A stretch of DNA of 64,000 nt from a virus (IMGVR_UViG_3300042890_002891:130831-194830), one strand, 5' to 3'; counted from the first letter of the stretch, positions 7,264 through 26,231 are shown. The notes: a model not told the origin generated them from the sequence alone. Numbers and translations: made by a program.

Positions 7264-8886
7264 CTACCTGGATTCGTCCAGATAATCTGCAGAATCGTCA
7301 GCCTGTTGTTTCAGCGACTGAATCTTTGTTTTCAAGCTGGCAATCTCTGCGGCCATGCGTCGAATCTTTTGATCCATCTCATGATCATCCACATTGCTGT
7401 GCATGAGACTGCGTTGCACCCACTTGTCAAACGCTGATTCAGGGTCTGCTGCCAGGTTGGGATAGTGGCGTTTGGCATAGTTCTTGATGGCATTTAGTTC
7501 AGAGTCATTGGTTTGATTGCTGGCTTCGTTGACACCTTGTGCAATTGCTTCTCTGGCCTGGCGTTCATTTTCTGCTTTGAATTTTTGTATAGCTTGACTG
7601 TCAGTGAGTTGTCCACGATCCAATGCTTGCCAAATTGATAAATCAAATGTAAGAAGTTTTTTTTGTACGGCTTGTGCAAAACTAAGTTCATTGGTGCCGC
7701 GGCCCTGCCAATCAGGCTTCTGGCCCCATACAACTGATATAGACCTATCGTCGGGCAGTGTAATCCTCATACGCTCGCCGTAAAATACATATTTACTACC
7801 TTGCCAGGTAAAAGCAAGATCGCCATTCACTGTTCGTCCCATGCTCCAGCCATGCTTTTTAATCAAAGCATCAACTGCGGCTTGATCTGCATTTTCAGCC
7901 ACATGTGTGTTAGAGACTTCCGCCACACCTTGCTCTTTTATATTAAATATTTTCTTTGCTTTATCATTGAGATTGCTGGGTCTAATAAGTTTAGCAGGTA
8001 TTGTTTTTGCTTGGGACTGTATTGCCTTATGTAGTCTATGGTTGCCATCGAGTATCCAGGCTATTTGATCTTGCTCATCTACCATTATTAAAATAGGAAA
8101 TTGTTTAGACACTGTTACTTGATTAACTCTTTCCATTTCTTCTGGGTTACCGTCCCAATGAAGTAGTTTACTCTTTAGATTATCGTTTATCGGTAAATTT
8201 ATTTGTTTAATGTGTTTGGTTAATTCTAAAATATCCTGTAGTGTAATTTTATCTGTGCCTTTGGACCAACTTGAGTCGGCACCGCCTTCCGCCATATCTT
8301 GTGCTTCTGCACCCATGGCAGTGTCCAGCATGTCAACCACATTGGCCGCCAACTTGGGATTGCTTTGTGTCTCAGGATACAGGCTCATCACCAGGGCTGT
8401 CTTGCGTTTGGGGTTGAGAGTGGGCCATGCCGATCGTATTTCTGTGGCTGATGTCATACCGGGCCCAAACTCCACTGTGGGCAGGTAAGCCATGTAGGCA
8501 TGCTGAGTCATTGGAGCCATGTCATCACTGATGGGTTGCAGATATGCAGGCGTGCCATCTTTCTTGGTAGCACCTGCCACAGGAGGCTTGTCAGCGTCTT
8601 TTTCACTGCGAACAAAGATCAACTGTGTGTCTGCAGGATTGTAACTCTTGGTAATCTCATCCGCACGGAATGGGCTTTTGACTTGATAGAACTTTCCAGG
8701 AGGAACACCGGCCAGTTGTGCTAGTTTTTCTTTGAGTTTGAACGGAAATGGTCGAGCAGAAGTGTCGTTGGTGGCCGCTACCTTGACATCAGCGCCAGGA
8801 AAAGCCTGCTCAGCAGATTGATACAGTGCTAGGTGGCCTGCGTGAAAAGGGTGAAATCCACCAGGCATGATGACTAATTGTTTCAT
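7264..8886 (-). CDS. Modular protein: HIGH-motif nucleotidyltransferase + ParB-like module + unknown modules joined by QxxAE-type linkers
   Basis: PGGFHPFHAGH; ILDGNHRL; linkers QDMAEG, QGVAEV, QGVNEA. Confidence 0.7.
   Translation of the reverse strand: MKQLVIMPGGFHPFHAGHLALYQSAEQAFPGADVKVAATNDTSARPFPFKLKEKLAQLAGVPPGKFYQVKSPFRADEITKSYNPADTQLIFVRSEKDADKPPVAGATKKDGTPAYLQPISDDMAPMTQHAYMAYLPTVEFGPGMTSATEIRSAWPTLNPKRKTALVMSLYPETQSNPKLAANVVDMLDTAMGAEAQDMAEGGADSSWSKGTDKITLQDILELTKHIKQINLPINDNLKSKLLHWDGNPEEMERVNQVTVSKQFPILIMVDEQDQIAWILDGNHRLHKAIQSQAKTIPAKLIRPSNLNDKAKKIFNIKEQGVAEVSNTHVAENADQAAVDALIKKHGWSMGRTVNGDLAFTWQGSKYVFYGERMRITLPDDRSISVVWGQKPDWQGRGTNELSFAQAVQKKLLTFDLSIWQALDRGQLTDSQAIQKFKAENERQAREAIAQGVNEASNQTNDSELNAIKNYAKRHYPNLAADPESAFDKWVQRSLMHSNVDDHEMDQKIRRMAAEIASLKTKIQSLKQQADDSADYLDESR
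7523..8301 (-). repeat. Three copies of the ~17-nt linker repeat (consensus CAAGGTGTGGCGGAAGG)
   Basis: Copies at 7523-7539, 7917-7932, 8285-8301, all in frame. Confidence 0.8.
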
Positions 8887-9885: not shown

Positions 9886-10560
9886 TTATTTAGCCTGTAT
9901 AGGTAGGGTTTTGTTGATAATTCCCGGACACACCAGACTCAACATCAACAAGAGATCTGGGTCGTCGTGATCTACAAAATGATGGTCGCGTGTGGCCAAT
10001 CTGCCGGGACGTTCAAGTTTTTCGCAAAATGCTCTGGGAATTCTAAACAAATCTTGTCGCCCCAGCAGGAACTTTTTGACTCGAGCACTGGTGTCCGGAT
10101 CCCACCATCGACTCTTCAAAAACGTGCGGTACTGATTCACAGGGTTCACCAGCATCACAGTGTCTTTGGGGTACACTACCACCGCTTGACCAATCAACCA
10201 CCGATCAATATATTCAACTTGACTCATGTACTCTAGGGTGGTCAGTTCGTTGGTGTACAAAAACACATGATCATACTGAATCATTATTTTGCATGACTTG
10301 GGCAAGCCTCGCAGCAGATCGCACATGTTGTGCAAATCACCACGCTGCTGAGTATCTGCCAGAGACGGAGCATTTGTGCCAATCCCAATGACATCACCAC
10401 GGTAGCGACCATAGTAATTTTCCAAGCGGCGGTCAAGATCCGCATGATCAAAACTGCGCATGCACCAGGCAAACCTCAGGTAAAACTGCATGCGATACTG
10501 ATACTGATCAAAAAACAGTCGATCGCGTGGTTCCTGACGGATATCTTTAATCTTGCTCAC
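9886..10560 (-). CDS. Hypothetical protein
   Basis: Long ORF; probable GTG start at 10560 overlapping the end of clpA. Confidence 0.6.
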   Translation of the reverse strand: MSKIKDIRQEPRDRLFFDQYQYRMQFYLRFAWCMRSFDHADLDRRLENYYGRYRGDVIGIGTNAPSLADTQQRGDLHNMCDLLRGLPKSCKIMIQYDHVFLYTNELTTLEYMSQVEYIDRWLIGQAVVVYPKDTVMLVNPVNQYRTFLKSRWWDPDTSARVKKFLLGRQDLFRIPRAFCEKLERPGRLATRDHHFVDHDDPDLLLMLSLVCPGIINKTLPIQAK

Positions 10561-12844
10561 TGACTGGATCCAGTAATCTAACAATGTTGTCTGCTGTCAC
10601 CACAGGAATCACATCAAACTGCACCACATCATCTGTTACACCTACTGTGATGTCGCAGTCACTGAGACGATCAAACAAGATTCTCTTGCTCAAGGGCACA
10701 CGAATCAGTTCATCAATCTTGCGACTCAGAGGCCTTGCACCCATTTTGCTGTCGTAACCCTTGATGGCCAGTAGTTCAATCACAGGCTCTGAGAAAAACA
10801 ACCGAATGTTCTTGGATGCCACTGATGTCTTGAGTTCGTCCAGGAACTTGACCACAATCTTCTTGATGGCCAAGGTATCCAGTTTGACAAACTTGCAGAT
10901 CTTGTCAATACGATTACGCAGTTCAGGTTTGAAGAACTCTTTCAATGCACGATCTTCTTCACCAGATTTTTCCAACTCACTGGAGAATCCAATGTTGTTG
11001 TTTTCATTGTCTCTGGCACCCAAGTTTGAGGTCATGATAATGATGGTATTTTTGCAATCTACCCGTTTGCCATTGGCACCTGTGAGATGCCCTTCGTCCA
11101 GCATCTGCAACAAGATATTGGTAACGTCAGCATGTGCCTTTTCAATTTCGTCAAACAGGATCACAGCAAATGGATGTTTGCTCAGATCCGAGATCAGTTT
11201 GCCACCACCCACATTGCCATCTTCAAAGCCCACATAGCCCGGAGGTGCACCAATCAAGCTGCTGACTGAATGCTTTTCCTGAAACTCACTCATGTCGTAT
11301 CTCAACAGATGCATGTCTAGATTTTCACTCAACAGCTTGGCCAATTCAGTTTTGCCTGTGCCAGTTGGGCCCAGAAACAAAAAGCTGGCCATGGGCTTGT
11401 GTGTGCTGCCAATGCCCGAGAAGTTGATGTACACTCGCTCCAGCACAGCATCCACAGCACCTTCTTGACCATAGAGTTTTTGTTTGATGTTGCTTTCAAG
11501 TTCCACAATCTTGGTTGAACGCTCGTTTTGCAATCTATCAGTGGGCACACCGGTGACCCGGGCCACCTGCTGTTCAATCATGCTCTTGTTCACTGTGACC
11601 ATGCCTGCATCCTTCACACGCTCTCTAGCACAGGCAGCATCCAACAGGTCAATTGATTTGTCTGGATTCTTTTTGTCATGAATGTATCGGCCCGCCAGTT
11701 CAACTGCTGCGGTCATGGCCTCTGTGTCGATCATCACATTGTGGAATGCTTCCAGTCTGGGGCTGAGTCCGATCAGAATCTTTTCTGTAGTTTCGGTGTC
11801 TGGTTCATCTATGGTGAGCCTGTAGAATCGTCTCATGAGTGCGCGATCCTTTTCAAAGCTCTCGTAGTATTCTTCCCAGGTGGTGCTGGCAATAACCTTT
11901 AGATTGCCCTTGGTGATTGCGGGCTTCAGCATGTTGGCAAAGTCCAGGCTACCTGAACTGCCGGCACCTGCACCCTTCATGGTATGCGCTTCGTCTACAA
12001 ACAAGATACATTTCTTCTTGGATTCCAGTGCAGCAATCACAGCCTTGAACTTTTCTTCAAAGTCTCCGCGATACTTTGATCCTGCTACCAGAGCACCGAT
12101 TTCCAGGCTCCAGACTTCGTAGTCCTTCAAGAACGCAGGCACACGTCCGGCCACAATCTCCTGTGCCAGACCTTCAATGATGGCAGTCTTGCCCACACCA
12201 GGATCGCCCACCATGAGCACGTTGGCCTTGAAGCGGCGGGCCAGCACAGCAATCATTTCTTCCAGTTCTGTTGTGCGCCCAATTAGCGGTTCCAAAGTAT
12301 CCGACTTGGCCAGGGCTGACAAACTGGTGCAGTATTCTTCCAGGATCTCAGTGGCCTGCTGATCATTGAGACCAGCCACAGGATCCATCTTGTAGTTCTT
12401 TCTCCAGAAGTCCACAAACTCGGCTTTTTGCACGCCAAACTTCAGCAAGAAGTAGTGTGCATGGCTGTTGGTTTCGCCCATGATGGCCAGATACAGGTCA
12501 ATGGTCACAATTTGTCTGCGTCCACTAAACAACACCTGTGTTATTGCACGATTGAATACTCGTTCCAGGCCGGATGTTTTTCTAGGAGTAAAATCTGGAA
12601 TGTCGCTGATTATGCCTATCAGGCTGTCCAGGTAGCCGCAGAGTTCGTTTTCCAGCATGGCCACATCGCAACCGTACTTGGTCAAGGTGTTTCTAAAAGG
12701 CACATGTCTGATCAGGCTCAGCAACAGATGTTCTGTCATCACGTATTCGTGTTTCCAGGTCTGCGCAATTTTTATAGAGCCATCAATGATGGCTTCAATT
12801 TCGGGGTTGTCTTGCATAGCGTTTTGTCCGTGTGGTGTGCTCAT
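10547..12844 (-). CDS. clpA: ATP-dependent Clp protease ATP-binding subunit (ClpA-like, two AAA+ domains)
   Basis: Clp N domain TEHLLLSL; Walker A GDPGVGKT and GPTGTGKT; LIGAPPGYVG; FDEIEKAH; MGARPL. Confidence 0.93.
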   Translation of the reverse strand: MSTPHGQNAMQDNPEIEAIIDGSIKIAQTWKHEYVMTEHLLLSLIRHVPFRNTLTKYGCDVAMLENELCGYLDSLIGIISDIPDFTPRKTSGLERVFNRAITQVLFSGRRQIVTIDLYLAIMGETNSHAHYFLLKFGVQKAEFVDFWRKNYKMDPVAGLNDQQATEILEEYCTSLSALAKSDTLEPLIGRTTELEEMIAVLARRFKANVLMVGDPGVGKTAIIEGLAQEIVAGRVPAFLKDYEVWSLEIGALVAGSKYRGDFEEKFKAVIAALESKKKCILFVDEAHTMKGAGAGSSGSLDFANMLKPAITKGNLKVIASTTWEEYYESFEKDRALMRRFYRLTIDEPDTETTEKILIGLSPRLEAFHNVMIDTEAMTAAVELAGRYIHDKKNPDKSIDLLDAACARERVKDAGMVTVNKSMIEQQVARVTGVPTDRLQNERSTKIVELESNIKQKLYGQEGAVDAVLERVYINFSGIGSTHKPMASFLFLGPTGTGKTELAKLLSENLDMHLLRYDMSEFQEKHSVSSLIGAPPGYVGFEDGNVGGGKLISDLSKHPFAVILFDEIEKAHADVTNILLQMLDEGHLTGANGKRVDCKNTIIIMTSNLGARDNENNNIGFSSELEKSGEEDRALKEFFKPELRNRIDKICKFVKLDTLAIKKIVVKFLDELKTSVASKNIRLFFSEPVIELLAIKGYDSKMGARPLSRKIDELIRVPLSKRILFDRLSDCDITVGVTDDVVQFDVIPVVTADNIVRLLDPVSEQD

Positions 12845-19305: not shown

Positions 19306-19950
19306 TTATTTATTCTCTACCCAAAAGCCCAGTCTATCTCCGCCAATGCTGGGATACCAGATCGAGCCTGGTGGCTGCGGTCCGGGATCGTCTTTCCATA
19401 CCGGATATATCACATCACCTGTGTGATTGGCAAAATCGTCATTCCATCTCAGATGTACTTCTATTATCTTGCCATCCACATATTCCACGTTGACCCAGGG
19501 CATCAGTTGCCACAGATCTTCTAGCACCTGTGGAAATTTGTGCTGATCTGAAATTCGCTCCCAGCGACAGAATCTATCTAGTCTATCGCTGCTGCGAAAT
19601 CCTTCCACCGCTAATTGCTGTATGCCATGATGAAAATCCACACTGGTGTGACGACCATCAAACCATTCGGTCCAGAAATATCCATCTGGTACTGAATCAG
19701 TGTCCGCGGGTGTGAGCCATTGCTTTGTGGCGCCACGACTCATCATGCGTATGTTGGTTATGGGTCGCACAATGTACCAGCCTGGCCTGGGAACCGGAAT
19801 GCCGGCTGGGCCAGCTGAGTATCCGTTTTTACGTGCCAGTATCAATTTGTCATAGATCCAGAGATAATCTACAGGACAAGTTGCCCATACATCTTTGTCA
19901 TCTATATAGACCATTGCACCAGCAGCAGTGGGTGGTTGGCCAATGTTCAT
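19306..19950 (-). CDS. Hypothetical protein, possibly ATP-grasp-like
   Basis: YIVRPITN...WTEWFDGRHTSVDF...IIEVHLR resembles ATP-grasp motifs; start uncertain (19914 possible). Confidence 0.5.
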   Translation of the reverse strand: MNIGQPPTAAGAMVYIDDKDVWATCPVDYLWIYDKLILARKNGYSAGPAGIPVPRPGWYIVRPITNIRMMSRGATKQWLTPADTDSVPDGYFWTEWFDGRHTSVDFHHGIQQLAVEGFRSSDRLDRFCRWERISDQHKFPQVLEDLWQLMPWVNVEYVDGKIIEVHLRWNDDFANHTGDVIYPVWKDDPGPQPPGSIWYPSIGGDRLGFWVENK

Positions 19951-19957
19951 TGCTGTG

Positions 19958-20575
19958 TTATACTCCCATCACGTGCAGAGCATGTTCATAGTGACTGATA
20001 CGATCTTCCAGGCCAATGTAGCCACCATTGATGGCTCGGGTCAGTCCCTTGATATCGCCGGCATCGGCATAGCGATTCAGATTGTTGGTTTCCCAAAACC
20101 AACAGGCGCTTTGTGCAGCACCTTCAAATGTGGCCAGATATTCTGCTGCTTCTTCCACAGGGATATCCATGCTGCCTGCAAAGAATGTGTAGTTGTCTCG
20201 GCCGGTGAGCTGAATAAGTCCACGTCCGCAGTAGCGCCAGCCATCTCCAGACGCTTCGTCACCGTTGCCCATTCTGTTGGCATACACTCGATTGGCAATG
20301 CGCTCAGGCTTGTTGGCATACTGTGCTGCAATGTCTGCTGTGGGGAAATACTTGGCAAAGGTTTTCATTAAACTAGCGGCCTTGTAGTTGAGATTTTCCT
20401 TGATAAAAACAAAGTTACCTGACTCATGGGCGCACTGTGCCACAAATGCTGCCACACGTTGTGGAGTGTTGATTTCGTAGTCATCCAGCAACTGTTCCAG
20501 GGCTGCATACCAGTGGTCAATGTGGGGATTCTTGACCATTTGTTTTAGTTGTTCTTTGGTTAGTATTGTGCTCAT
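19958..20575 (-). CDS. Endolysin, glycoside hydrolase family 19
   Basis: FVAQCAHESG...ENLNY...YCGRGLIQLTG...INGGYIGLEDR. Confidence 0.9.
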   Translation of the reverse strand: MSTILTKEQLKQMVKNPHIDHWYAALEQLLDDYEINTPQRVAAFVAQCAHESGNFVFIKENLNYKAASLMKTFAKYFPTADIAAQYANKPERIANRVYANRMGNGDEASGDGWRYCGRGLIQLTGRDNYTFFAGSMDIPVEEAAEYLATFEGAAQSACWFWETNNLNRYADAGDIKGLTRAINGGYIGLEDRISHYEHALHVMGV

Positions 20576-20769
20576 TTTGTTTTCTTTCTTATCAAGTCAA
20601 ATGCTCGCCACACTGCCCAAGCGGCCAGCACAGCAAATATCACAGTCACAGCAATGTCTGTTGTGGTCCATTCCGCTGGTGGCAGCTCTTGTGCTGTGTA
20701 TTGTTTGAGTTCTACCGCGTTAGCAGCAGGATGCTGAGCATTGTATTGCTCTTGTGCATGATTGTTCAT
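20572..20769 (-). CDS. Small membrane protein
   Basis: One C-terminal TM helix; overlaps both neighbours. Confidence 0.55.
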   Translation of the reverse strand: MNNHAQEQYNAQHPAANAVELKQYTAQELPPAEWTTTDIAVTVIFAVLAAWAVWRAFDLIRKKTK

Positions 20770-21035
20770 TTGCCCACGCCTTCAAAGATGCGGCGTTGTA
20801 TTTCATACCATTCAATCCAGGCATCTGTTTTCACAGCACACTCATAGTAGGTGCTGTAGTTGATGGTGATGGTTCTGCTGACGTCACTGAGTAGGGCATC
20901 GTCTTTTAGTTTCTGCAGGTTGGGACAGGTAACCATGGCCTGCTTTCCCGGTGCTTCGGGGAATGTCATTGACACAGGTACCAAGGTGCTGCATGCTGAT
21001 AATAAGAGTGCTAGTGCTAATACAAAGATTTTCAT
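20766..21035 (-). CDS. Outer-membrane lipoprotein, o-spanin (Rz1)-like
   Basis: Lipobox LSAC after a hydrophobic stretch; Pro/Cys-rich; next to endolysin. Confidence 0.65.
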   Translation of the reverse strand: MKIFVLALALLLSACSTLVPVSMTFPEAPGKQAMVTCPNLQKLKDDALLSDVSRTITINYSTYYECAVKTDAWIEWYEIQRRIFEGVGK

Positions 21036-23341
21036 TTTTTCTTGGCCCTTCCTGATTTCATATTTGCTAACCAATGGGCTAGTTGTCCTTTGCGTCCACC
21101 CTGCTTGGCAGTTTTGCGTAGACTGCTTACACTGGCTTTGGTGTTGATACCGTGACGTTTGGCATCGCCTTTGTCTTGAGGATTGCGACCGTCGGCAAAG
21201 TTTTCATCGACTTCTTTATCCATTCGTTGAGCTTGTTTAAATGCGGTATCATACCTTTTGCTATCTTGTGTTGCTGGATTGCGTATAGCATCATCACCGC
21301 CAATACGGCCTTTTTGTATATTAGTAGCCAAGGTGTTGGCCAAGGTGTTAGTTCCAACAAATTTACTGCGTAGTTTTGCCTGTTTCATGCCTTGGATAGC
21401 TTGTTTTGTTTCTGGTCCAGTGTAGGCATTTACTTGGAATACAGGAGTTTGTTTATTGGCTCTAGGAATATCTTGCACTCCGGTTTCGCAACGAACTGCA
21501 AGAGGCTCGCTTGGTATGTCTAGGCGTTTAAAATAAAAACTACTATTAGTCTTGATATCTTGTATCCAAAAAGCTCCACCCTTTGGCACCTTATCTTCTA
21601 AATCAGGAATCATATCTACCATGGTTACAAGATTACTCATCATTCTGGGACCTATGTTTCTAGTCATAGCACGGATTACACTGTGATTATCAAGATATAC
21701 TATCCAGTCACCTACACGATGTTTAATAATTTCGGTATGCTGATGATTCGAGCCTTCCGCCACAGCTTGCTGACCTCCGGTCCATGTTGCCATGAGCAAA
21801 TTGTCTGAATCGTAACCGTATAACTTGCTCAATTTATTTTTAACAGCAGGGGTGAGTTGGCCATTTCCAGGCACAACATCAAATGCCCAATAGGTACGGT
21901 TGTTGTTTTTGGCCACAAACTGTCCACCCAACTGCATCAATTGATCTATAGTGTTGTCAACTTGTCTGGACTTGTCAAGCTGGAAGTCGGCTAGATCCAA
22001 CAGTCCTTTGATCTCAACCCCAGGAATAGAGGCCAGGCTCAGCCAGTTTCTACGACCGCCGGGAGTTTGACTATCGCCAGAAATCAAGGTCTTTTTCATT
22101 ATGGTCAACACAATGCCATACAAGGCTCGGGCCAGGCCGCGTCCGCGATAGTTTTCGTCAACAGTGATAGAACCAACTTGAACACTGTCAGGAATCACAC
22201 CTTTTCCCAAGTACAAACCTGCCACAATAGACGGTTTTGTTGTTCCGGGAATTCCAGGATCAAGAATATGCACATAAGAATCGTATGTGATTGAATACAT
22301 CAAGCCACTGCCGCCCGGCAGGGCACGAAGGTGTTTTTTTCCTGGAGTACTGAAACGGTCTAGTGTATCTTTACCGCCACGAAAATGAGATTGCTTCATG
22401 TTCTCAATTTCTGTCAAGGAGCCTTCTGTCACATCCTGCTGCTGGTAATAGAAACTGTGAACATCGGTTTCTGGATCGTATTTTACCACAAGGTCGTCCA
22501 ACACAAACTCATCACCATATTCTTCCACAGCTTGAGCAAAGCCAGTGGCATCGCCAAAAACATGCTCTATAACGTCATCATCTGTGCAGTTGCCAATATA
22601 GCTTAGATTGTTCTGGCCTTCTGCTAGGCCCCGCTGACCCTCGTGTTCTCCACGCATGGCACGGTCAACATAGTCGTCTGACACTGCTTGTTCTAGGTCC
22701 ACTTTGACACCCAGTTGTTTTGCCAGTGATAATATTTTGTCACGACTCATGGAGTCTTGATATATTGCACTTAGACTTGCTTGGCCTTCACTGTAATCAC
22801 CCCATTCTTGCCATAATGGAACAACTCCGTCAATTTGTTTTAGTCCGCGATACATCTTTTTCTGCAATGCAGGATCAGTGGCATCTGGGAATTGTGGATT
22901 AACACATACAAATTCTATTTCTTTGTATCCAGCCGGTGCTTCTGAAACATCTTGCTTGCCTGCCTGTGTGGCTATCTGCATGGCATTGGCCAAGTCTTGT
23001 TTAGTGAACCGTTTCAATTCACCACGCAGCATCGCCTGCTTGATCTCTTCGGGCCCAAAGTTCACATACTGTGTGTCAACACCACCTGTTGTGTCTGGTC
23101 CCACCAACTGTTGTTCATTGTCGAATCTACCACGGCAGTCATATGCCGTGCCATCTGGCGCCACTGTGTACACATGATCCACACGATACTCAGTGTCATC
23201 AGCAGCATCATCGTCATAGCCTACATGGGCACGTATTTGCCAATCAGGGTGCAACTGCTTCAATGCCATGGCCATCACATGACAGTGTCCTGCCATAAAA
23301 TCGTGACCCTTGACTTCTGAAACAAATTCACTTGCTCTCAT
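21032..23341 (-). CDS. Modular polyprotein A (CTS-like leader; about 6 modules including a GNAT domain)
   Basis: MRASEFVSE; linkers QDVSEA, RGLAEG, QDVTEG, QAVAEG; GNAT motif A VDENYRGRGLARALY. Confidence 0.75.
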   Translation of the reverse strand: MRASEFVSEVKGHDFMAGHCHVMAMALKQLHPDWQIRAHVGYDDDAADDTEYRVDHVYTVAPDGTAYDCRGRFDNEQQLVGPDTTGGVDTQYVNFGPEEIKQAMLRGELKRFTKQDLANAMQIATQAGKQDVSEAPAGYKEIEFVCVNPQFPDATDPALQKKMYRGLKQIDGVVPLWQEWGDYSEGQASLSAIYQDSMSRDKILSLAKQLGVKVDLEQAVSDDYVDRAMRGEHEGQRGLAEGQNNLSYIGNCTDDDVIEHVFGDATGFAQAVEEYGDEFVLDDLVVKYDPETDVHSFYYQQQDVTEGSLTEIENMKQSHFRGGKDTLDRFSTPGKKHLRALPGGSGLMYSITYDSYVHILDPGIPGTTKPSIVAGLYLGKGVIPDSVQVGSITVDENYRGRGLARALYGIVLTIMKKTLISGDSQTPGGRRNWLSLASIPGVEIKGLLDLADFQLDKSRQVDNTIDQLMQLGGQFVAKNNNRTYWAFDVVPGNGQLTPAVKNKLSKLYGYDSDNLLMATWTGGQQAVAEGSNHQHTEIIKHRVGDWIVYLDNHSVIRAMTRNIGPRMMSNLVTMVDMIPDLEDKVPKGGAFWIQDIKTNSSFYFKRLDIPSEPLAVRCETGVQDIPRANKQTPVFQVNAYTGPETKQAIQGMKQAKLRSKFVGTNTLANTLATNIQKGRIGGDDAIRNPATQDSKRYDTAFKQAQRMDKEVDENFADGRNPQDKGDAKRHGINTKASVSSLRKTAKQGGRKGQLAHWLANMKSGRAKKK

Positions 23342-25111
23342 TTAGCAGTTCCATTTACGCAGGGCCAGAGCCTTGCGGGTAGGTTTACCATTGGGCTTTT
23401 TCATTGGGCCTTTTACGCCGCCCATTCTGGCACAGAATGATTTGCGGCGTTTGGCTGCTTTGGAGCCAGGCTTGAGTTTTGACGGCTTGGTTGTGACTGC
23501 TGTTTGCAGTTTTGATCCGGGATTCTCTCTGCGATAACTGGCCACACCCTTGGCGTTGAGCCCGCCCCGGGCGCTCTTGCCTTCTTTTCTGCGCCAGGCT
23601 GCTGTTTCGTACAGTTCGTGATCATCCACTGACTCAAAGTCTTCCCAGATCACATCTGAATCCACACCATGTGATTCGGCCAGTTGTTCTACCATGTCTT
23701 CGATCATGTCAAACTGCTGATCTGTTGTGAGTTCTTCTGTGACAGGCACACAGTTGGGCACCTGGCGGCCACTTTTGTTTTTCATGCCCTGTTGCTGATA
23801 GCCGTCCCAGCATTTTTCATCCAGTTGCTGTTCTGCCATGCCTGGCTTTTGTTTATAAATTGTAACTTGTGTTGAACTGTTGAACTGGCCGCCATTTTGT
23901 TCAATAAAGTCAAGTAGTTGATCATATGCGGCTTGAGCAGTTTGACCACCTTCAAAACGCCGAGATACAATCTCAATACCTATTCCATTTCCTTCTATAG
24001 AATTATCTCTTTCTACCTGATATGCTCTGCCAATTTTGTTTTGGATCATGCTAACAACAGATTGATCTGGACACAACACTTCAATTGCAAATGCTACTGG
24101 ATATTTGCCACCAAGCAGTTGCGTTGCTTTGTAAGGCGAAGTTTTTACCGTGTTGAATTCTTCCGAGCCTTCTGCCACACCTTGCTTTTTATTGTCTTGC
24201 TGTTTATCGCCTTGACGCCACCAATATGCGTTGTATTCTTTGCTGTCGTAGCCAGGTACTTTGGCATCACTACCGTGTTTGGCACGCCACTCACGCTTGA
24301 ATGCGTTGTATTGTGTCATACCTTTGTCTTCCGCTACACCTTGCTGACTATTGATGCTTACATAGGCGACTGGAATAGTTTTCATCTCAGCTAACCAAAA
24401 CGCCACCATTCTATGACGGCCTTCCATAACAAACAAATGTGGATCACCTGCTTCTACATAGATGGGCAATGGCTTTGCTCCACGCTTTAACAACTTCAAA
24501 ATACGATTAGTGCGGTCTTCATCTTCGGGAAATTCATCATATGTCCCATACATTTCACGAATCTGTTTGATGAACTTTTCAATAGATTCTTGCTTGACTT
24601 CAACTGACAATTTATCAGGAGTAGTATTCATCCAATCAGCAACATCGTCTAAATCTTGCTGATTGTGTTTTGAGCCTTCCGCCATGCCTTGCTTCTTGAT
24701 AGGAGTTAGTGTAAAATCTTTATTGACTAAAAATTGCTTTCTTTGTCTGGGACCGATCTTTTGTCCATCGGTATAGTGGAATAATACTTCAACATAAACT
24801 TTGCCGTCGTGCTTATAGTATTGAATGTCAGTATAGGCACCTGCCACTTTTTCAGGATCTAAATATTGGTTTAACGCAGTCCCTATTCGACTTCTGATTT
24901 GTAGTCGAGGAGTGAACTTAGCATCTTCTTCTTCACCTTCCGCCACGCTTTGCTTTTTAGTCTCTGGTGGTTTGGCCACACCGTCTTTGCCTCGGACCAA
25001 CCCAAGTACGGCAGACATATCTCTAGCACCTTTGAGAGCACCCTGGGCTAGTTTCTTTTCTTTTGATCCCATCTTGGGTGCAGAGTCTTTGGAGCCTTCC
25101 GCCATGCTTTC
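21753..25111 (-). repeat. Ten dispersed in-frame copies of the ~17-nt linker repeat (CAAGGTGTGGCGGAAGG-like)
   Basis: 21753-21769, 22422-22438, 22617-22633, 22938-22954, 23830-23845, 24168-24184, 24327-24343, 24675-24691, 24936-24952, 25095-25111. Confidence 0.85.
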
Positions 25112-25318
25112 TGACTTGTTGCCATAGTTGCTGGCACCTTTTTTGCGACACTGTACCAAACGACCAGACGCATAGGCACTGGGCCATACTTTTGCTGAAG
25201 CCTTGACCTTGTAGTAGCAGGCATCTTTCTTTTCTATTAGATCTGAATATTCCATCAAGGGTCCACCACAGTGCGGACATTTTTGTTGTGATTCTGTAAT
25301 GATATCATTTATGTTCAT
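23342..25318 (-). CDS. Modular polyprotein B (CTS-like leader; ParB-like, amidoligase-like and basic modules)
   Basis: MNINDIITE; six xxAE linkers; VMEGRHRM; GIEIVS...FNSST; basic C-terminus AAWRRKEGK...RKWNC. Confidence 0.75.
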   Translation of the reverse strand: MNINDIITESQQKCPHCGGPLMEYSDLIEKKDACYYKVKASAKVWPSAYASGRLVQCRKKGASNYGNKSESMAEGSKDSAPKMGSKEKKLAQGALKGARDMSAVLGLVRGKDGVAKPPETKKQSVAEGEEEDAKFTPRLQIRSRIGTALNQYLDPEKVAGAYTDIQYYKHDGKVYVEVLFHYTDGQKIGPRQRKQFLVNKDFTLTPIKKQGMAEGSKHNQQDLDDVADWMNTTPDKLSVEVKQESIEKFIKQIREMYGTYDEFPEDEDRTNRILKLLKRGAKPLPIYVEAGDPHLFVMEGRHRMVAFWLAEMKTIPVAYVSINSQQGVAEDKGMTQYNAFKREWRAKHGSDAKVPGYDSKEYNAYWWRQGDKQQDNKKQGVAEGSEEFNTVKTSPYKATQLLGGKYPVAFAIEVLCPDQSVVSMIQNKIGRAYQVERDNSIEGNGIGIEIVSRRFEGGQTAQAAYDQLLDFIEQNGGQFNSSTQVTIYKQKPGMAEQQLDEKCWDGYQQQGMKNKSGRQVPNCVPVTEELTTDQQFDMIEDMVEQLAESHGVDSDVIWEDFESVDDHELYETAAWRRKEGKSARGGLNAKGVASYRRENPGSKLQTAVTTKPSKLKPGSKAAKRRKSFCARMGGVKGPMKKPNGKPTRKALALRKWNC

Positions 25319-25758
25319 TTTTTCTTTCCTTTTGTGCTGACATTTATTGCTGCTCCTGAACGATTGGCGTCAGGATCTTGTCGTCGTTTTCTGGCCGCTG
25401 CTGATGCACGACCTTTCTTGCCCAGTGCATTGGCCTTGGCTCGTGGCAAACACTTGGGCTTGCCTTCTGATTTGGAACCTCGAGCACAGTCACCGCGTAT
25501 TTTGCCGTCTGGTCCAAAGCGTACCCATTTGTCCTTGAACCAGTCTCGAAGATTTTCATTCACGTCTGAGTCAGCATGTGCCTCACACATGCCACAGTCT
25601 TCGCACACCATTTCCATCACAGTGTCATCAACAGATTCGTTGTGTTTGCGTTTGCCTGCACAATGGGCCTTTTGTGAGAAGCCTTTTGGGTGAGCACAAT
25701 TGATGCTCTTTTTGTATTTTGGGCTCCACTTTTCAGTGACAAATTCTGTGGCTCTCAT
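25315..25758 (-). CDS. Small basic Cys-containing protein with CTS-like N-terminus
   Basis: MRATEFVTE/KWSPKYKKSINC; second module after VNE/NLRDWF. Confidence 0.7.
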   Translation of the reverse strand: MRATEFVTEKWSPKYKKSINCAHPKGFSQKAHCAGKRKHNESVDDTVMEMVCEDCGMCEAHADSDVNENLRDWFKDKWVRFGPDGKIRGDCARGSKSEGKPKCLPRAKANALGKKGRASAAARKRRQDPDANRSGAAINVSTKGKKK

Positions 25759-26195
25759 TTGACTGGCTCCGCTGCACGATTGTGTGCCTGAACAAATGGT
25801 GCAGGTATCACACAGGTGTTGTCGTATTTGACAACTTCGCGATCCACAAACTGCACAATGTCTTGACCACGACGTGTGATATATTCAGTTTTCTTTATGA
25901 CTCTGGTTTCTATTTTGACATTGGCGTCCTTGGAGGCAGCTTGGGCCACCACAATCTGTGCTTCAAGTTTGGCCACTCGCTCACGCCAGGTCTGTTCCAC
26001 AGCAAGTCCACCACGGAAATACACACCCAGAACCAGCAGTGCGATACCCAGGACTTGTGCAGGTATTCGATACTGATTGACCAAGGGCAGTGTTTTGATG
26101 AAAAAGGCCACAACGGTCAACACAATGCCCGCTATCAGCAGGCCATTGCAGAACCACAAGATTACGCTGTCCGGGAGATATTGCAAGATAAACAT
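25755..26195 (-). CDS. Membrane protein with coiled coil, i-spanin (Rz)-like
   Basis: Two TM helices, coiled coil, ending CVIPAPFVQAHNRAA; TAAATA at 26202. Confidence 0.55.
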   Translation of the reverse strand: MFILQYLPDSVILWFCNGLLIAGIVLTVVAFFIKTLPLVNQYRIPAQVLGIALLVLGVYFRGGLAVEQTWRERVAKLEAQIVVAQAASKDANVKIETRVIKKTEYITRRGQDIVQFVDREVVKYDNTCVIPAPFVQAHNRAAEPVK

Positions 26196-26231
26196 ATATG
26201 ATATTTATCCGTCCGGAACCGTGTTGTGTGT

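Follow-up and report, generated by a model that had tools for sequence, protein, structure and literature searches.

Candidate capsid-cargo polyproteins built from cassettes around a repeated peptide and DNA joint in an uncultured T4-like jumbo phage

In phage T4, the prohead protease gp21 cuts after L/I-x-E, degrades the scaffold to peptides and removes the capsid-targeting sequence (CTS), and the first 10 residues of the internal protein IPIII suffice for loading (PMC9026906). Prohead proteases cut many head proteins after the Glu of a short motif, some of them at several sites, as described for T4 gp22, gp67 and gp68 and for phages phiKZ, 201phi2-1 and SPN3US (PMC9026906, PMC5694885, PMC10052503). 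In the so-called polyvalent proteins, 2–15 disparate effector domains are joined in one polypeptide, which is predicted to accompany the DNA; the word ‘linker’ is absent from the paper describing them, which mentions no repeated joint either (Iyer et al. 2017, PMC5512222). Here we analyse a stretch of 64,000 nucleotides (hereafter the window), which corresponds to bases 130831-194830 of the 261,673-bp IMG/VR contig IMGVR_UViG_3300042890_002891. The contig is about 75% complete and comes from an uncultured T4-like jumbo phage from lakes. Two adjacent open reading frames in the window (ORF1 and ORF2), together with a third just outside it (ORF3), encode strings of unrelated modules separated by a short recurring linker with the consensus Q-G-V-A-E-G. 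With moderate confidence, we read all three as capsid-cargo polyproteins with a dual-purpose joint, which would be both an exchange site and a cut site of the prohead-protease type.

ORF1 (769 amino acids, 21032..23341 of the window, minus strand) consists of a leader and six modules, and ORF2 (658 amino acids, 23342..25318, minus strand) of a leader and eight modules. ORF3 (1167 amino acids, minus strand) lies 1.6 kb to the left of the window, at genome positions 125748-129251 (L009:10748-14251). It has the leader MILDEFF..., an acidic first module of 468 amino acids and eight QGVAEG-type joints, and its modules recur among IMG/VR relatives in different orders. Except for that long first module, module lengths lie between 52 and 240 amino acids. 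All 22 modules of the three ORFs were compared and no mutual similarity was detected; each ORF carries six to nine mutually unrelated modules, a predicted GNAT fold and a putative ParB/sulfiredoxin-like fold included. An earlier note on this DNA, made from the sequence alone, had described ORF1 and ORF2 as adjacent chains of unrelated modules with CTS-like leaders and ten linkers, and each part of that description holds, with four of the ten linkers in ORF1 and six in ORF2. The note had missed ORF3, the fixation of the linker as an 18-nt DNA sequence and its role as a crossover point.

The linkers of ORF1 are QDVSE/A (residues 130-135, 22937..22954; a slash follows the Glu), RGLAE/G (residues 237-242, 22616..22633), QDVTE/G (residues 302-307, 22421..22438) and QAVAE/G (residues 525-530, 21752..21769). 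A degenerate site, KEVDE/N (residues 711-716, 21194..21211), is taken as an eleventh joint because homologues have the same C-terminal module after QGVAE/N. The linkers of ORF2 are ESMAE/G (residues 70-75, 25094..25111), QSVAE/G (residues 123-128, 24935..24952), QGMAE/G (residues 210-215, 24674..24691), QGVAE/D (residues 326-331, 24326..24343), QGVAE/G (residues 379-384, 24167..24184) and PGMAE/Q (residues 492-497, 23828..23845); all are on the minus strand. The strict six-residue motif has 19 sites across the three ORFs. This density of 7.3 per 1000 amino acids compares with 0.36 in the other 325 genes and is 20 times higher. When the three ORFs were shuffled 2000 times, 0.77 ± 0.88 motifs were obtained, with a maximum of 5. 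Within the proteome, the narrower pattern G[VM]AE[GAND] is confined to the three ORFs, with six occurrences. We also see a single QDMAEG joint, at residues 196-201, in a 540-amino-acid ORF (7264-8886, minus strand) whose N-terminus resembles a nucleotidyltransferase (HxGH) and which also includes a ParB-like part (phrog_1033) but no CTS-like leader.

Protein searches returned over 340 metagenomic proteins in which single modules of these ORFs, often at 95-99% identity, stand next to other neighbours; the relatives in IMG/VR number 298 for ORF2, 4 for ORF1 and 13 for ORF3. The modules that neighbour the shared ones include ART-PolyVal (PF18760; ART, ADP-ribosyltransferase), Alt-like ADP-ribosyltransferase, ParB_N, nucleotidyltransferase, dCMP deaminase, NUDIX, GH19, Amidoligase_2 and GP88, of which ART-PolyVal and the Alt-like enzyme sit after the same leaders and linkers. 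Several of the rearrangements can be read to the residue. The proteins P0008, P0009 and P0011 are ORF1 minus exactly the 223-amino-acid GNAT cassette, whose left edge is the QDVTE/G linker; they show 99% identity on both sides and the junction ...QQDVTE/GS-NHQH... P0124, in which ORF2 module 4 is fused to module 4 of ORF3, breaks at QGVAE/D, as does P0125, while P0141 runs from ORF2 modules 1-2 directly into module 5, breaking at QSVAE/G. Eight proteins that are 93-97% identical to residues 1-241 of ORF1 part ways at its second linker, RGLAE/G. All-against-all comparison placed 37% of the interior ends of homology within 3 residues of a linker Glu, compared to 3% at random positions.

The same pattern is seen on assembled contigs. 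Two lake metagenomes and two metatranscriptomes yielded contigs with, in all, eight alternative joints inside these genes. Of the 16 joint ends, 14 are no more than 5.5 residues from the Glu of a linker or leader, where about 11% would be expected by chance. Contig joints fall at 22931 (QDVSE/A), 21772 (QAVAE/G), 21184 (KEVDE/N), 25086 (ESMAE/G) and 24672 (QGMAE/G), and four at 24162-24187 (QGVAE/G of ORF2). The metatranscriptome contigs cover most of the stretch, although this is not proof of transcription, since DNA carry-over is possible and these are contigs and not reads. In X4, a lake metagenome run, the summed contig depth was 158-416 for shared modules (DUF6321, ORF2 module 1 and a neighbouring 147-amino-acid ORF), with the high regions at 23410-23603 and 24962-25543, versus 14-22 for private modules; this pattern appears to fit module sharing among many co-occurring phages. 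At least 14 lake or freshwater metagenome runs, from 2016 to 2024, hold the stretch. Assembly chimeras are an unlikely source of the mosaic homologues, because these come from many independent samples and studies. The cassette build that had been proposed is thus borne out by module orders that vary between relatives and break at linkers, and we consider it essentially demonstrated that the linker is a crossover point at which relatives insert, delete and exchange single modules. A whole-length alignment of ORF2 built from module fragments was dropped, as MAFFT misaligned 82 of its 118 rows. Among 50,697 cultured-phage records, megablast and tblastn gave no match to ORF1, and the matches to ORF2 were limited to its modules 1, 7 and 8 and to small proteins from cyanophages and pelagiphages.

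Conservation of the joint was assessed on 123 orthologous linkers defined solely by alignment of both flanks, a set that replaced a noisy table of what precedes homologous modules (Glu 56% at position P1, the residue before the boundary). At P1 we find Glu in 95 linkers, Asp in 7, Lys in 5 and a gap in 9, so that Glu accounts for 95 of the 114 non-gap residues (83%). Two residues upstream, P3 is V, M, I or L in 93% of non-gap linkers despite an identity of only 50%; P2 is mainly A, S or T, and P1' is G, A or D. The class-conservative P3 and the near-fixed Glu therefore imply a constraint on the peptide, and this indicates that selection acts on the protein sequence of the linker. The DNA appears to be constrained as well. 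Compared with the same ORFs as a whole, linker codons are strongly skewed (GCG for 64% versus 7% of Ala, GTG for 82% versus 30% of Val), and linker Gly is encoded by GGT in 76% of cases at P4 and by GGC in 78% at P1'. Nucleotide conservation is limited to 18 nt, CAAGGTGTGGCGGAAGGC. With two positions left degenerate, this 18-mer is present in at least 120 IMG/VR stretches, against a rough chance expectation of fewer than 10, and a locus often has several copies on one strand. As judged from these sequence patterns, the joint is a peptide motif and at the same time a DNA element.

The joint also takes other forms among relatives. Two relatives of ORF3 (L108 and L115) have orthologous joints that lack the Glu, QGMTK/G and QGMPK/G; if cutting requires Glu, the flanking modules would remain fused there. 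In the T4-like cyanophages ACG-2014f (L118, a Synechococcus phage), P-SSM2 (L119) and S-SM1 (L259), the same small modules are connected by a different joint, S-x-W-R-D-[DE]-[LF]-[DE]-[LF]-x-E-G, in proteins encoded between gp15/16 and gp17, and in marine IMG/VR relatives the joint reads E-S-A-V-[TN]-E-S. These joints appear to be lineage-specific dialects.

The N-terminal leaders are the second recurring element. ORF1 begins with MRASEFVSE (23315..23341) and ORF2 with MNINDIITE (25292..25318), both on the minus strand and both CTS-like, the latter with an I-T-E end. In sequence comparison, the leader closely resembles the T4 CTS, MKTYQEFIAE, as an N-terminal peptide of about 10 residues with a hydrophobic-x-Glu end. 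The leader family comprises MRAxEF[IV]xE, MNINDIITE and MIIDDLFE..., has a length of 9 residues and includes MRAHEFIAE in relatives. Six of the 328 genes have such a leader (MRASEFVSE, MNINDIITE and MRATEFVTE among them), compared to 0.8% of internal Met positions. Some modules from the interior of these chains are single genes elsewhere: a 110-amino-acid ORF starting MIITE/V (L104) corresponds to ORF1 module 2, a 264-amino-acid ORF starting MRANEFE/G (L022) corresponds to the GNAT module, ORF2 module 7 directly follows MRYKEILE/, and many further modules stand right after MRAxEFxxE/. Conversely, ORF1 module 1 follows the leader here and is internal in P0042 and P0030. The end of the leader and the linker are interchangeable module boundaries.

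A link to the head protease comes from relatives. On the window's own contig the profiles PF03420 and PF07068 had no match, and we attribute the missing head genes to the incompleteness of the contig and not to gene absence. The contig is collinear with a complete 364-kb relative, G002, with which it shares 198 of 328 genes at a median identity of 61%; the part it lacks corresponds to 188-277 kb of G002, where a Peptidase_S77 (T4 gp21) protease and a Gp23 capsid protein are encoded. Peptidase_S77 is found in the syntenic relatives G002, G003 and G004 (E ~1e-24), and G002 encodes three linker-jointed polyproteins of its own. Between its protease and capsid genes, G002 also encodes a protein with seven [VMLI][AST]E sites, or 19 per 1000 amino acids, the highest density among its 264 proteins of at least 150 amino acids (median 0, 95th percentile 6.3), as would be expected for a scaffold that gets degraded. 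Another relative, G001 (IMGVR_UViG_3300032268_000986; L033; 343 kb, 99% complete), gave no matches to the Peptidase_S77 and Gp23 profiles; it either has highly divergent head genes or is a counter-example to the protease link. We observe that G001 carries a relative of ORF2 and the 18-nt joint.

Relatives also provide a link to the virion. The T4-GC119 proteins of cyanophages (P-SSM2 gene 123 and S-SM1 gene 115), encoded between gp15/gp16 and gp17, are homologous to ORF2 modules 1 (72%), 7 and 8 (36%) and to the 147-amino-acid ORF. Purified virions of S-SM1 gave 13 peptide counts for the protein SSM1_115 (PMC3037559 Table S8), and the protein is listed as a ‘structural protein’ (PMC3037559). 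As we read these data, this protein is the sole experimental link between the family and the virion.

Whether linkers fall between folded units or inside them had been fixed beforehand as a check on the polyprotein reading, and in two AlphaFold models they lie in low-confidence gaps between such units. For ORF2 residues 120-505, AlphaFold2 gave a mean pLDDT (predicted local distance difference test) of 65, with confident blocks for module 3 (67-77), module 4 (81-93) and module 5 (60-87), and less so for module 6; the linker Glu residues 127, 214, 330, 383 and 496 are all in dips below 50. The full-length model of ORF1 had a mean pLDDT of 46.5 and was confident only for the GNAT module and the C-terminal basic helix. 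Its linkers 3 and 4 fall in the low-confidence flanks of the GNAT module, at residues 300-320 (pLDDT <50) and 523-582, and the poor quality of the remainder makes this model uninformative on linkers 1 and 2.

Taken together, we think that the three chains are probably loaded into the capsid and cut there by a gp21-type protease. The leader would carry the chain into the prohead core, the prohead protease would cut after the leader and after each linker Glu, and the freed modules would remain in the head and be injected into the host along with the DNA. The joint would have two roles: as DNA, an in-frame microhomology of 18 nt for module insertion, loss and exchange, and as protein (consensus Q-G-V-A-E/G), a site for prohead proteases of the gp21 type, whose hydrophobic-x-Glu cutting rule it would fit in form given the residue classes at P3 and P1. 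A number of points weigh against this account. Packaging, cleavage and ejection of ORF1, ORF2 and ORF3 are steps that we infer, and the protease is known from relatives, as the contig itself is without a head module. The motif-rich protein of G002 is a putative scaffold by position only, its PHROG having no named function. P3 is mostly Val or Met, where Leu and Ile are canonical in T4, and the capsid maturation site of the relatives offers generic candidates (I-L-E/N, L-K-E/N) and not the linker consensus. The conserved Q-G and silent sites exceed what a protease site needs, and recombination alone could explain them. Loss of the Glu from some orthologous linkers (Lys in 5 and Asp in 7 of 123) suggests that cutting is not always required, and the 540-amino-acid ORF has a joint without a leader. 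Lastly, the virion detection in S-SM1 covers three of the eight ORF2 modules and says nothing on cleavage.

Some of these points would be accommodated if the chains were never cut, that is, if they were multidomain polyvalent proteins that act at full length, packaged or not, with the linker as a flexible spacer kept as DNA microhomology. The silent sites of the linker are conserved, down to a codon that is rare elsewhere, exchange demonstrably occurs at the linker, and genes with Glu-less linkers are still kept. There is also a precedent in the virion RNA polymerase of phage N4, a known polyvalent protein that is packaged unprocessed (PMC5512222). A pure DNA joint, however, does not predict the hydrophobic class at P3 at 50% identity or the near-invariant Glu; nor does it predict that a CTS-like leader encoded by different DNA can form the same boundary with its end, or that the putative scaffold of a relative should be the richest carrier of the same tripeptide in its proteome. 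We consider this alternative rather unlikely, while giving it more weight than the two that follow.

Fragments might instead serve less as host-directed effectors than as structural or scaffold-like head components that mainly fill or organise the head or bind DNA, in the manner of T4 gp22, gp67 and gp68 or the phiKZ inner body. Many modules are indeed small and basic, with isoelectric points of 9-11.5, the C-terminal basic modules (NFADG... and DUF6321) are near-universal in the family, and the cyanophage homologue carries its ‘structural protein’ label. Yet the putative enzyme modules (GNAT and ParB/sulfiredoxin-like here, with ADP-ribosyltransferase, deaminase, NUDIX and nucleotidyltransferase in relatives) and the fast turnover of modules are more in keeping with conflict effectors than with architecture, and we hold a structural role to be improbable. 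Slightly more improbable still is a polyprotein that never enters the head, being cut at the linkers by another protease (a phage ClpP/Lon-like or host enzyme) and acting in the producing cell, for example late, near the lysis genes. The operon does lie between lysis-type genes, outside the head module, and a 765-amino-acid ATP-dependent protease is encoded at 10547-12844 (phrog_4871, E 5e-232). However, Clp and Lon are processive degraders and not site-specific endoproteases. The resemblance of the leader to the T4 CTS, the presence in virions of a homologue of three modules, and the occurrence in the same frames of relatives of Alt-like ADP-ribosyltransferase and ART-PolyVal, which are typical injected effectors, all argue against it.

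The modules themselves show what the cargo may be. The fourth module of ORF1 (residues 307-529, 21755..22423, minus strand) is a predicted GNAT fold with an acetyl-CoA-binding motif region. AlphaFold2 modelled residues 321-522 with pLDDT 72-89, and nearly every Foldseek match listed from the PDB is a GNAT-superfamily acetyl- or acyl-transferase, with probabilities up to 1.00. The module scores 17-19 bits (18.7) against PF00583, under the cut-off of 20.7 bits, and its homologues carry PF00583 and PF13508. In ORF2, the fourth module (residues 215-330, 24329..24676, minus strand) has a putative ParB/sulfiredoxin-like fold (pLDDT 81-93) with a GRHR motif. Its best Foldseek matches, all weak (E 0.04), are the ParB N-terminal domain 5k5d (probability 0.95), sulfiredoxin and Osa; Pfam itself gives no match, and BLAST connects the module to the Pfam ParB_N-bearing modules of P0026 and P0037 (E 1e-5). 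Of the specific folds named in the earlier note, GNAT is upheld by the agreement of model and Foldseek, and the ParB-like assignment is supported more tentatively, by the weak fold matches together with BLAST. The amidoligase-like module proposed alongside them was not recovered: a Pfam scan found no PF12224 match in any ORF1 or ORF2 module, and the amidoligase sits in a separate 1345-amino-acid neighbour ORF, which also has a weak DUF6782 match. The relatives P0178 and P0062 do have PF12224 parts, which are not the segments homologous to ORF1 or ORF2.

Both ORFs end in a basic module. That of ORF2 (residues 580-656, 23351..23581, minus strand) is a DUF6321 domain (PF19846, E 4e-21, 75.9 bits versus a cut-off of 28.5) and is homologous to the virion-detected SSM1_115. 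The ORF1 module is a helical segment of 54 amino acids, NFADG...KKK (residues 716-769, 21035..21196, minus strand; isoelectric point 11.5, pLDDT ~79), and is the commonest terminal module of the family (depth ~100). We see it terminate dozens of otherwise different polyproteins, nearly always after QGVAE/N, and it may have a special role, for instance in DNA binding or core anchoring. Apart from GNAT and DUF6321, hardly anything emerged when 20 single modules were scanned against Pfam, and no peptidase family matched any module of the three ORFs at E<=1.

ORF2 and ORF1 belong to a run of overlapping genes on the minus strand, in the order 146-amino-acid protein, 147-amino-acid protein, ORF2 and ORF1. 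The first gene (25755-26195, minus strand) encodes an i-spanin-like membrane protein with two transmembrane segments and a coiled coil. The second (25315..25758, minus strand; phrog_727 and phrog_23735) encodes small basic modules after the leader MRATEFVTE/K..., and is homologous to the N-terminal part of the cyanophage T4-GC119 proteins. Beyond ORF1 lie genes for a lipoprotein, a small membrane protein and an endolysin. Lysis-type genes are thus seen on both sides of the polyprotein genes (19958-21074 and 25755-26195, minus strand), and the 19958-21074 group comprises a 102-amino-acid o-spanin-like lipoprotein with an LSAC lipobox, a 65-amino-acid membrane protein and the endolysin (phrog_181, E 3e-78).

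A box resembling part of a T4 late promoter, ATAAATA (26202..26208, minus strand), precedes the run's first start codon by 6 nt. In the genome, 22 of 39 such boxes are within 60 nt upstream of a start codon, and the box also precedes tail-fibre-like genes and another leader-bearing gene. Its placement suggests late expression of the four-gene run, provided that it acts as a promoter. The positional pattern is limited to the 7-mer and does not extend to the full late promoter: the exact T4 sequence TATAAATA was not enriched in the window, with 2 matches versus 0.95 expected. About ten ATAAATA boxes are just 4-6 nt upstream of a start codon (e.g. 26202-26208 and 19307-19313); if these are late promoters, such transcripts would be leaderless or nearly so.

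If the capsid-cargo reading is correct, one leader and one protease would deliver a dozen different small proteins with the phage DNA, and the joint would let relatives reshuffle this arsenal module by module with the frame intact, allowing fast evolution of injected counter-defence proteins. Every joint-bounded module would become a candidate injected effector, giving a catalogue of hundreds, and the order leader, module, joint would be a design rule for loading foreign proteins into T4-type capsids. The great variation in length and content of T4-GC119-type genes in T4-like cyanophages would also be explained. A further and more tentative idea, which we put forward as possible but doubtful, is that the 18-nt joint is a dedicated, selected site for in-frame cassette exchange as well as a protease mark, an ‘integron for capsid cargo’ by which co-infecting phages swap, gain or drop injected effectors singly. 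Were this so, the loading, processing and evolvability of an anti-host arsenal would be coupled in one grammar, common to a large clade of freshwater T4-like phages and, in variant form, to marine ones.

Among known systems, the internal proteins of T-even phages are close to ours on both counts, cargo and exchange; the DNA encoding their CTS was reportedly proposed by Repoila et al. in 1994 as a recombination point in the shuffling of internal protein genes. T4 IPI, IPII, IPIII and Alt (Mullaney & Black 1996; reviewed in PMC9026906) have the same kind of short leader with a hydrophobic-x-Glu end (MKTYQEFIAE, compared to MRAxEF[IV]xE here), and the likeness extends to the S77 protease and gp23 capsid of the relatives, to small, unrelated, fast-evolving cargo and to an Alt-like ADP-ribosyltransferase. 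They differ in that each cargo protein has its own gene and its own CTS, whereas here up to nine modules share one leader and one reading frame, with a repeated internal joint of the cleavage type that is conserved as 18 nt of DNA. With the polyvalent proteins, ORF1-3 have in common several biochemically disparate domains in one phage polypeptide and a shared repertoire, namely GNAT and ParB-like modules here and ART-PolyVal, nucleotidyltransferase, deaminase, NUDIX and Amidoligase_2 in relatives. For polyvalent proteins, embedded zincin-like metallopeptidases have been proposed to carry out processing (PMC5512222); ORF1-3 have none, and instead have a CTS-like leader and a repeated site of the type cut by a protease in trans.

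Multi-site head cleavage of the T4 and phiKZ type removes propeptides or destroys scaffolds, and the release of unrelated folded cassette modules is not described there, nor is a conserved DNA joint known. Polyproteins made by RNA viruses of eukaryotes are alike in having one frame, a viral protease and repeated short sites that yield separate proteins, but they belong to another realm, use another protease and serve replication and expression and not capsid cargo, whereas the module order here is fluid among close relatives. Full-text literature searches covering the linker, DUF6321, jumbo-phage polyproteins and CTSs in metagenomes returned no account of cassette-built cargo chains with a repeated joint. 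What is new compared to the closest systems is the combination of a cassette-built, putative cargo chain with a repeated joint of the trans-protease type that doubles as a conserved DNA crossover.

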